From assembly GCA_964016885.1 (NCBI GenBank), contig OZ024754.1, forward strand, positions 27,590,001 to 27,654,000: a stretch of DNA of 64,000 nt, in the 5' to 3' direction. This stretch comes from Eledone cirrhosa (lineage: Eukaryota). Below the pieces are notes generated by a model. The model made no database searches and was not told the origin of the DNA. It worked only from the letters and a program-made list of their open reading frames with translations. How positions within the stretch are numbered: the stretch's first letter is position 1; every line of letters starts with the position of its first letter. This document shows positions 10,640 to 12,979 of this stretch, one piece after another. The translations under genes and the position numbers were made by a program.

Positions 10640-11031
10640 TCTGGCAATATTATTACAACAATATGACCCTCCTCAAGTATAACAATATATATATATATAT
10701 ATATATATATATATATATATATATATATATAAATTGAAACAAAATGAAAACGAAATTTCATTTCTCACTCTTAGTATGGCACTTACTTAAATGTAAGTAT
10801 GCATGTATACGTACATACATATATGTATACAGACGTACAGTAGCATGCACATATATATATATATATACACATATATATACATATGCATACAGGTACACAT
10901 ACATATATGCACGTATCAGTTTAGCGGCGCTAACGTCGCTTTGTTCGTTTGTAAACAAACTGAACAGCCTGAATTTATGCCATACGGTGTTAAGGCAACC
11001 ACGTCACCTTTTTGTTCAACACTGACACAGG

Positions 11032-11076
11032 AACGATGTACTAGTTTCAAGCTTGTTAGCTATCATCAGCACCGTT
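11032..11076 (-). ncRNA. Type I hammerhead ribozyme, family E unit 1
   Basis: Minus: AACGGTG-CTGATGA-TAGCTaacaAGCTT-GAAA-CTAG-TA-CATCGTT; GUA triplet, palindromic stem III. Confidence 0.9.
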
Positions 11077-11497
11077 TACCCATCTGCCAGATAGTTGAAC
11101 GTTCGAAAGTATATACTTTCCTTATGAAAATTAACGGCTGAGCAGCCTAATTTGCATATTGAGTGAGTTAAATCGGTCAGGCATACCGAAAACGATAAAT
11201 TGAAACAAAATGAAAACGAAATTTCATTTCTCACTCTTAGTATGGCACTTACTTAAATGTAAGTATGCATGTATACGTACATACATATATGTATACAGAC
11301 GTACAGTAGCATGCACATATATATATATATATACACATATATATACATATGCATACAGGTACACATACATATATTCACGTATCAGTTTAGCGGCGCTAAC
11401 GTCGCTTTGTTCGTTTGTAAACAAACTGAACAGCCTGAATTTATGCCATACGGTGTTAAGGCAACCACGTCACCTTTTTGTTCAACACTGACACAGG

Positions 11498-11542
11498 AAC
11501 GATGTACTAGTTTCAAGCTTGTTAGCTATCATCAGCACCGTT
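11498..11542 (-). ncRNA. Type I hammerhead ribozyme, family E unit 2
   Basis: Identical to 11032-11076, offset 466 bp. Confidence 0.9.
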
Positions 11543-11963
11543 TACCCATCTGCCAGATAGTTGAACGTTCGAAAGTATATACTTTCCTTATGAAAATTAA
11601 CGGCTGAGCAGCCTAATTTGCATATTGAGTGAGTTAAATCGGTCAGGCATACCGAAAACGATAAATTGAAACAAAATGAAAACGAAATTTCATTTCTCAC
11701 TCTTAGTATGGCACTTACTTAAATGTAAGTATGCATGTATACGTACATACATATATGTATACAGACGTACAGTAGCATGCACATATATATATATATATAC
11801 ACATATATATACATATGCATACAGGTACACATACATATATGCACGTATCAGTTTAGCGGCGCTAACGTCGCTTTGTTCGTTTGTAAACAAACTGAACAGC
11901 CTGAATTTATGCCATACGGTGTTAAGGCAACCACGTCACCTTTTTGTTCAACACTGACACAGG

Positions 11964-12008
11964 AACGATGTACTAGTTTCAAGCTTGTTAGCTATCATCA
12001 GCACCGTT
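11964..12008 (-). ncRNA. Type I hammerhead ribozyme, family E unit 3
   Basis: Identical to 11032-11076, offset 932 bp. Confidence 0.9.
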
Positions 12009-12979
12009 TACCCATCTGCCAGATAGTTGAACGTTCGAAAGTATATACTTTCCTTATGAAAATTAACGGCTGAGCAGCCTAATTTGCATATTGAGTGAGT
12101 TAAATCGGTCAGGCATACCGAAAACGATAAATTGAAACAAAATGAAAACGAAATTTCATGATAGCTAACAAGCTAACAAGCTTGAAACTAGTACATCGTT
12201 CCTGTGTCAGTGTTGAACAAAAAGGTGACGTGGTTGCCTTAACACCGTATGGCATAAATTCAGGCTGTTCAGTTTGTTTACAAACGAACAAAGCGACGTT
12301 AGCGCCGCTAAACTGATACGTGCATATATGTATGTGTACCTGTATGCATATGTATATATATGTGTATATATATATATATATGTGCATGCTACTGTACGCC
12401 TGTATACATATATGTATGTACGTATACATGCATACTTACATTTATATATATATATATATATATATATATATATATATATATATATATATATATATATATA
12501 TATATATATATATATATATATATATATATATATATATATATATATATATATATATATATGTATATATATATGTATATATATATATGTATATATATATATA
12601 TATGTATATATATATATATATATATATATGTGTGTGTGTGTGTGTGGGTGTGTGTGCTTGTGTGTGTGTGTGTGTGTGTATCCATTTAAATATGTATCCA
12701 TTCATTTTTACACACACATATATGTATATATATATATATAACCAATTGATATAACACTAGTAGTCTCTGTATATAGTACGCCTGACTACTGACAACTGAC
12801 TACTAACACCTGTCTGTGAATGTTTATTGATAATTTCATTAATATCGAACTCTTGAAATGTAATGTAAATTTAAACATTGTTTTTATATATTGATATGTA
12901 AACATGCAAATTCATGTAAATATATACAGTCCACAGTACATCTATTCCGTATATATATATATATATATACATACATATA

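Follow-up and report, generated by a model that had tools for sequence, protein, structure and literature searches.

In the window analysed here (the whole stretch of 64,000 nucleotides from Eledone cirrhosa, contig OZ024754.1, positions 27,590,001 to 27,654,000), the segment 10,685-12,629 is probably best read as one young, two-armed insertion of a 466-nt hammerhead repeat in (TA)n, written by a Penelope-like reverse transcriptase (RT)-endonuclease from what was probably a circular RNA. By the sequence features that define the class, the repeat is a new family within the animal non-LTR retrozymes, which have been described before. The retrozyme papers, in the text available to us, propose Penelope-like movement without showing the insertion step (PMC7229834; 10.64898/2026.07.22.740005). 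The window family gives a direct insertion footprint: two exact priming sites, strict long/short pairing of ends and arms that continue through the cut, in a genome that also encodes intact candidate enzymes. This footprint makes the insertion step directly testable, and two questions can be taken to the bench with the 466-nt RNA, namely whether the template is circular and how inverted, tailed Penelope-like insertions originate.

Layout of the insertion and its hammerheads

The monomer was numbered q1-466, q1 being the first base past the predicted hammerhead cut, and the features are listed in Table 1. TRF detected a tandem repeat of period 466 and 3.1 copies at 10729-12159, in agreement with the three head-to-tail 466-bp units described in the first-pass annotation; the sole difference among these near-identical units is the substitution it had reported in unit 2 (11375 G>T). 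That annotation also treated 10731-12444 as a simple tandem bounded by (TA)n. The left boundary was confirmed; on the right the period breaks at 12160, and 12160-12444 is a fourth, inverted and 5'-truncated arm on the plus strand, after which (TA)n begins. The insertion is made of two opposed arms within (TA)n and both outer ends run into that repeat, 310 and 251 nt downstream of the predicted cut, two positions 59 nt apart in the unit; neither end coincides with a ribozyme cut. The insertion is young, since the two arms together carry two substitutions in 1.7 kb.

Table 1. Positions in the window of the features discussed in the text; q numbers refer to the 466-nt monomer.
Feature	Positions	Strand	Remarks
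(TA)n target tract, left	10685..10731	.	TRF, 23.5 copies, 100%; element boundary ambiguous by ~3 nt
Tandem arm, 3.07 units	10729..12159	-	5'-truncated unit (from q278), followed by two full monomers and q1-310; terminates at the 'long' 3' end, q310
59-nt 'tail' (q252-310) that separates the two fixed 3' ends	10729..10787	-	predicted hairpin, -9.0 kcal/mol
Type I hammerhead motif 1	11029..11081	-	predicted cut 11039/11038; Rfam HH9 18.5 bits, E 0.3
Full 466-nt monomer with the substitution at 11375	11039..11504	-	
Type I hammerhead motif 2	11495..11547	-	predicted cut 11505/11504
Full 466-nt monomer, reference	11505..11970	-	internal (TA/TG)-rich hairpin at ~q125-250
Block q337-395	11576..11634, also 11110-11168 and 12042-12100	-	76% identical to family B over 59 nt
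Type I hammerhead motif 3	11961..12013	-	predicted cut 11971/11970
Head-to-head junction	12158..12193	+	2-nt overlap (AT); inverted arm begins at ~q439-441, within the hammerhead core; 8-nt slip duplication in stem II
Inverted arm, q441-466 and q1-251	12160..12444	+	3' end is the 'short' one, q251; one substitution, 12399
(TA)n target tract, right	12443..12629	.	TRF, 93.5 copies
Broken Penelope-like RT-endonuclease fragment	15348-16472	+	~92% identical to the intact 775-aa family

Apart from the 466-nt units there are no terminal direct repeats, and a target-site duplication is unreadable at this insertion because both ends lie in (TA)n. Published descriptions of animal retrozymes give target-site duplications of >4 bp when present and no LTR, PBS or PPT. 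They also describe self-cleavage and RNA in monomeric linear and circular forms; among six sequencing runs listed for the window sequence none was of RNA, which speaks neither for nor against transcription. The GC content over 10001-12000 was 0.30. The earlier assignment of the array as non-coding holds: among the listed frames no stop-to-stop frame of >=150 aa lies in the tandem part (10729-12159), and the frames of that length starting at 12207 and 12229, which overlap the inverted arm, continue into the TA repeat as low-complexity IY text. The RT + GIY-YIG ORF of an autonomous Penelope-like element was sought within the insertion and was absent. Among four other sequencing runs (kind unspecified), contigs of two covered all 30 bins, one gave a single partial contig <90% alike and one gave none; such matches indicate only the presence of the sequence in other data sets. 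The ~35 nt before the left (TA)n tract (10655-10690) correspond to the 3' end of a further hammerhead-bearing element that also occurs in L199 and L285. As read from the sequence, hammerhead-bearing elements stack in common TA tracts.

The hammerhead string quoted in the first-pass annotation occurs three times on the minus strand (core starts at 11069, 11535 and 12001), and the predicted cuts after GUA fall at the positions it had given. These three cuts would yield two full monomers, not the three it had expected. In each motif the core is complete; stem I has 6 bp, a UAA bulge and a distal stem, stem II has 4 bp and sits on a U-U mismatch, and helix III consists of one A-U pair plus the palindrome CUAG. 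The motifs had been called intact, which is correct for the full core in all three and needs qualification in four respects: helix III is minimal, the Rfam score is below gathering, the minimum-energy fold is inactive, and the fourth copy, in the inverted arm, is truncated (without the 5' strand of stem I and the CUG of the core) and predicted to be dead. At the gathering score Rfam returned no hits; the best sub-threshold match of the motif was Hammerhead_HH9 (18.5 of 52 bits, E 0.3), and the hammerhead of the sister family B scored 31.8 bits (E 1.3e-4). Matches to Rfam microRNAs arose from the TA/TG hairpin, far below threshold, and were rejected. A one-pair helix III with a palindrome is reported as the usual metazoan type I form, which is a poor self-cleaver as a single copy and in tandem arrays takes up a dimeric fold (PMC4209133).

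Covariation was scored on 16 variants chosen from 38 distinct ones that were drawn from three families. In the hammerhead helices 94.9% of the cells were paired and both sides had changed in 10 of the 16 pairs. The pairing or covariation score was reached in 0/500 shuffles and the number of pairs in 3/500; slid controls of the alignment were 35-52% paired. As the rows come from three families, the independent covariation events are few. Folding of the monomer gave a z-score of -6.9 against shuffles in linear form, and the predicted circular fold without the microsatellite gave -4.6 (0/60 shuffles as low). In the predicted circle the probability of stem II was 0.91-1.0, that of the three core-proximal stem I pairs only 0.18-0.28, and the minimum-energy fold was an inactive alternative. 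Self-cleavage after GUA stands as a prediction because the active fold is not the predicted minimum.

The block q337-395 is a hairpin with a TATA-like word and the word ATGCAAAT, which we take to be an octamer; the block may act as an internal promoter or RNA element. Newt satellite 2 is, like the window unit, a tandem hammerhead repeat with a palindromic loop III; it cleaves as a dimer, and an internal snRNA-type promoter has been reported for it (as cited in PMC7229834, PMC2220036). The two repeats are compared here by their descriptions, and the conserved ATGCAAAT word is that of the window unit.

Fixed 3' ends and the Penelope-like footprint

The 44-nt hammerhead core has 8,284 exact copies in the 3.0-Gb genome by pattern search and its reversed control has 0, so that the core is not a chance match; this also supplies the copy number that the first-pass annotation had left to a genome-wide search. 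Together with the sister family B, the window family (family A) accounts for >16,000 hammerhead motifs in one cephalopod genome. We examined 71 stretches, 31 around the first 100 listed core matches and 40 around listed end matches, all of which came from contig C1 and were taken from the first listed matches, not at random. With the window they contained 79 insertions, 78 of them complete: 47 head-to-head two-armed, 27 single-armed and 4 complex.

The 133 arm 3' ends fell largely at two fixed sites, with 66 long ends (q296-311), 54 short ends (q243-255) and 13 elsewhere, and TA-rich sequence followed directly after 116 of the 120 ends at the fixed sites. Among the 47 head-to-head insertions, 38 pair a long with a short end, and in the other 9 at least one end lies away from these sites; in no case are both ends long or both short. 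Long/short pairing was seen by either picking route (16/16 hammerhead-picked and 22/22 end-picked loci). If ends were chosen independently, about half of the insertions would be mixed, and 0.495 to the 38th power is 2.5e-12. Genome-wide, at least 2,572 long and at least 2,435 short ends are joined to (TA)n, both counts being lower bounds from patterns of unequal tolerance. The 5' ends of arms are scattered over the unit. At the 47 arm junctions we found 21 overlaps of 1-6 nt, 7 longer overlaps, 5 blunt joints and 14 gaps, several of the gaps being unaligned element sequence. The predicted cut is crossed at least once by 92 of the 133 arms, with a maximum of 15 crossings.

Family B (7,983 pattern matches, unit of 461-467 nt) has its 3' ends at q233 and q302. 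Among the 28 loci examined, 16 have a long and a short end, another 3 have an end at a different position and the remaining 9 are single, giving a long/short pairing of 16/16. The long stem that closes the cut is retained in this family despite a different sequence. A further family, D, has a 310-nt unit with a related hammerhead motif; at L033:5700-8001 a tandem of this family with an inverted arm adjoins a family A insertion. At L237:956-1359 a piece of family B is joined directly to a family A arm without TA repeat, possibly by template switch between sister RNAs or by nested insertion.

An inverted 5'-truncated copy, a tail and a bias for microsatellites have been reported as hallmarks of Penelope-like elements (10.1101/2021.04.23.441226). 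In vitro, a purified Penelope-like protein nicked and extended both DNA strands, and synthesis began at two internal positions of the RNA, one at either end of the tail; these start sites did not differ between the strands, which counts against the reading favoured below (PMC11167929). The retrozyme family has the corresponding footprint, with two internal 3' ends bounding a tail, an inverted 5'-truncated copy, variable 5' ends and an AT-rich target. From the shared footprint and the published two-strand, two-site priming, the retrozyme insertions look like the product of Penelope-like chemistry. We concluded that the insertion is very probably of Penelope type, and the first-pass placement of the repeat among animal non-LTR retrozymes moved by a Penelope-like RT is supported through this footprint, and more directly than by its own argument.

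Candidate enzymes are present in the same genome. Protein searches with five queries, the RT fragment of the window and homologues of it, found three intact families, whose RT + GIY-YIG frames measure 775, 777 and 784 aa, as well as a fourth that is GC-rich; the two domains were confirmed by Pfam for two of the families. Among named proteins, the nearest homologue to one of the Penelope-like proteins encoded here comes from Octopus bimaculoides (65% identity). We recognised by eye a Cys motif ahead of the GIY-YIG domain, which suggests that the three intact families are Neptune-like. Each of the three is inserted in (TA)n; their paired 3' ends enclose tails of ~65, 38 and 38 nt, and a minimal U3-A8 hammerhead lies upstream of these ends. 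In the 775-aa family, 10 of 11 opposed pairs read by eye combine a long and a short end. In L092-L105, L136-L165 and L198-L225, also read by eye, each intact family appears to have an upstream frame that starts ~25 nt past the long 3' end and enters the RT frame at a T-run, a passage that is possibly a programmed frameshift.

A comparison of the 466-nt unit with the pLTRs of the three intact families, read to their ends, gave nothing beyond a 12-mer; the partner search scored the best 59-150 of 13,000-49,000 protein candidates, and the fourth family was compared without its 3' end. A single insertion at L250:946-1594 (1 case in 273 sequences) has a right arm in which q35-67 of the unit is followed by the tailed 3' end of the 784-aa family. 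It was rejected as a link to the partner: a copy of the 784-aa family with the same two substitutions lies ~500 nt away in inverted orientation, so local rearrangement or nested insertion is as likely, and the chimera may be taken as a weak hint of a partnership with that family.

The RNA template and the competing readings

Arm starts at the predicted cut numbered 14 genome-wide vs 13 at a control site, or 10 vs 12 after intact junctions with small changes (4 and 1) were dropped, the patterns catching only starts where both preceding bases differ. Cleaved linear monomers were rejected as the main template: with priming at q251/q310 they would end arms at q1, and there is no excess there. Since arm starts do not pile up at the cut, the template was continuous across it, as a circle or as an uncleaved multimer. 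The first-pass annotation had proposed a rolling-circle cDNA product; the continuity of the template across the cut bears this out in part, and an uncleaved multimer gives the same continuity. The window's own arms are too uniform to separate the two.

Other insertions carry more variation. When variants in <=2 insertions were counted, leaving out the microsatellite, variable regions and pieces >5% divergent, 13 variants were fixed in all units of 9 insertions and 5 of the 13 spanned both arms. Seven variants, in 6 insertions, were present in only some units, and recurring unit variants were seen in L052-L053, L055 and L253-L254. A single circle cannot yield unit-to-unit variants, so these mixed arrays speak against one monomer circle. 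Fixed variants of the window family were not enriched in A>G (2/13 vs 5/89 singletons, p 0.22). In family B, the insertion at L255-L256 (G000:C1:30829500-30843000) has ~20 units and three clustered A>G changes in all 19-20 of them, in both arms; the cluster sits in the conserved ATGCAAAT hairpin and was seen in no other fetched locus. This single case is as would be expected of one edited RNA copied repeatedly round. We consider it probable that a circle was the main template, and both routes may operate.

The reading that we favour would run as follows. A tandem copy would be transcribed through several units, the hammerheads are predicted to cut after GUA, probably as double hammerheads paired via the CUAG palindrome, and the monomers would be ligated to circles. 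The footprint suggests that both strands of a (TA)n tract are nicked by the enzyme, after which the two 3' ends prime inside the RNA, one at q251 and the other at q310. At the DNA level each arm passes back through the cut without stopping, in the window three times and once, and the repeated crossing would be caused by rolling round a circle. The two cDNAs would then stop at variable points and join head to head, often via a few shared bases. A more specific version, which we put forward tentatively and at slightly less than even chances, has a Penelope-like enzyme dimer on one circular 466-nt RNA with one priming site per nicked strand; rolling would produce the two opposed multi-unit arms, and the partner would be recruited by RNA shape, not by pLTR sequence. 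If true, this model would make the insertions a genomic archive of reverse transcription from circular RNA, laid down at thousands of places in animal chromosomes, and would explain the inverted-plus-tail structure of Penelope-like insertions generally.

The strongest competitor, which we regard as unlikely though still a serious reading, keeps the same two-site Penelope-type insertion and makes the template an uncleaved linear multi-unit transcript, the hammerhead being weak or off-route and circles a side product. The absence of arm starts at the cut fits it equally. The one Penelope-like protein tested in vitro did not need hammerhead cleavage for insertion and mainly used uncleaved RNA as its substrate (PMC11167929); helix III of the window motif is minimal, and such hammerheads are poor cleavers as monomers (PMC4209133). 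Eight of nine Xenopus dimer elements were reported without cleavage in vitro (10.64898/2026.07.22.740005). The mixed arrays also agree with a multimer, among them L052-L053, where the series of unit variants (446C>T, 126, 118) recurs in the two arms. A variant confined to a single insertion yet found in all units of its two arms requires that, at some step, one monomer was copied many times, which argues for a circle, although a uniform source array would also fix variants in both arms. With an uncleaved multimer, variable 5' truncation would shrink the arrays at each generation, yet arms cross the cut up to 15 times, and ~30 times in family B. The full-size hammerhead and the closing stem are, moreover, conserved with compensatory changes.

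It is improbable that the insertion began as a short Penelope-type one, with about one unit in each arm, and grew at its site afterwards through unequal crossover or slippage. Local amplification has been proposed for tandem retrozymes (10.64898/2026.07.22.740005), the higher-order patterns of the longest arrays (L253-L254, L055) resemble local duplication, and 80 of the 133 arms cross the junction once or never. The other 53 cross it twice or more, often on both sides of the inversion, with copies 99-100% identical to the reference; expansion would need a first duplication from <2 units at thousands of loci, and the inverted arms have fixed variants in common. In L253-L254 (G000:C1:5736500-5754500) a family B arm has ~31 units (14 kb), and its recurring unit variants suggest later local duplication or a mixed template. 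An assembly artefact behind the triplication or inversion in the window is very improbable: the locus is known as assembly sequence only and its near-identical units are flanked by long (TA)n, but unit 2 and the inverted arm each have their own substitution, the 8-nt slip at the junction is unique, the outer ends both lie at the fixed sites of the family, and dozens of other loci repeat the plan with different junctions.

Comparison with known systems and other elements in the window

Like the animal non-LTR retrozymes of coral, mussel and axolotl (Rtz331/Rtz353; PMC7229834), the window family is built of tandem units that do not code for protein and that each contain one type I hammerhead. 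It is also like them in low GC (<50%), dispersal in thousands of copies, a strongly self-paired predicted circle and the presence of Penelope-like elements in the same genome (PMC7229834; 10.64898/2026.07.22.740005). Helix III resembles the axolotl HHR_Amex1 type, which is described with one pair and a palindromic tetraloop. The 466-nt unit is just above the 150-450 bp given in PMC7229834 and within the 51-972 bp given in 10.64898/2026.07.22.740005. Animal retrozymes are described as tandems only in the available texts: the word 'inverted' does not appear in the main text of PMC7229834 and appears once, within the title of a reference, in 10.64898/2026.07.22.740005. The window family differs from these descriptions in that its insertions have opposed arms, end 3' at two fixed internal sites and lie in (TA)n. 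For retrozymes, Penelope-like mobilisation from circular RNA has been proposed from co-occurrence and pLTR similarity (PMC7229834; 10.64898/2026.07.22.740005). In Xenopus 24 of 57 families matched known elements (10.64898/2026.07.22.740005), whereas no homologous pLTR was found for the window unit in three families.

Endonuclease-containing Penelope-like elements of the Neptune type and Poseidon (10.1101/2021.04.23.441226, PMC11167929, PMC4209133) have in common with the window family variable 5' truncation, partial tandems, an inverted 5'-truncated copy, a one-sided tail between two internal starts, an AT-rich or (TA)n target and a hammerhead upstream of the 3' ends. Unlike them, the window family has no ORF, and its tail is 59 nt vs the 30-40 reported. 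Its hammerhead is full-size (C3-G8, 6-bp stem I), in contrast to the minimal motifs of the three intact families of this genome. Strict pairing of one long and one short end, as found in the window family, is not stated for Penelope-like elements in the available text of the three sources. In the largely open-access literature we found no description of a cephalopod retrozyme or of a two-site footprint; the Repbase/Dfam catalogues may list the family.

The window holds further elements. At 37190-37582 there is a two-armed insertion in (TA)n with opposed hammerheads (37378 minus, 37500 plus); one of its arms carries a tail of ~110 nt. A second two-armed insertion, at 50300-50540, has opposed hammerheads (50359 minus, 50409 plus) with a 3-bp helix III and a tail of ~68 nt, and its end recurs in many fetched loci. 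A short hammerhead-like motif of another type is located at 40152 (+). LINE-type RT frames in partial tandem occupy 24874-29669 (+; Pfam RVT_1 E 2e-22, weak zf-RVT). Tandem repeats of 206, 83 and 117 bp were found at 44386-44790, 53733-54221 and 57568-57816, respectively, and the 206-bp unit resembles a SINE-like sequence at 10423-10650.
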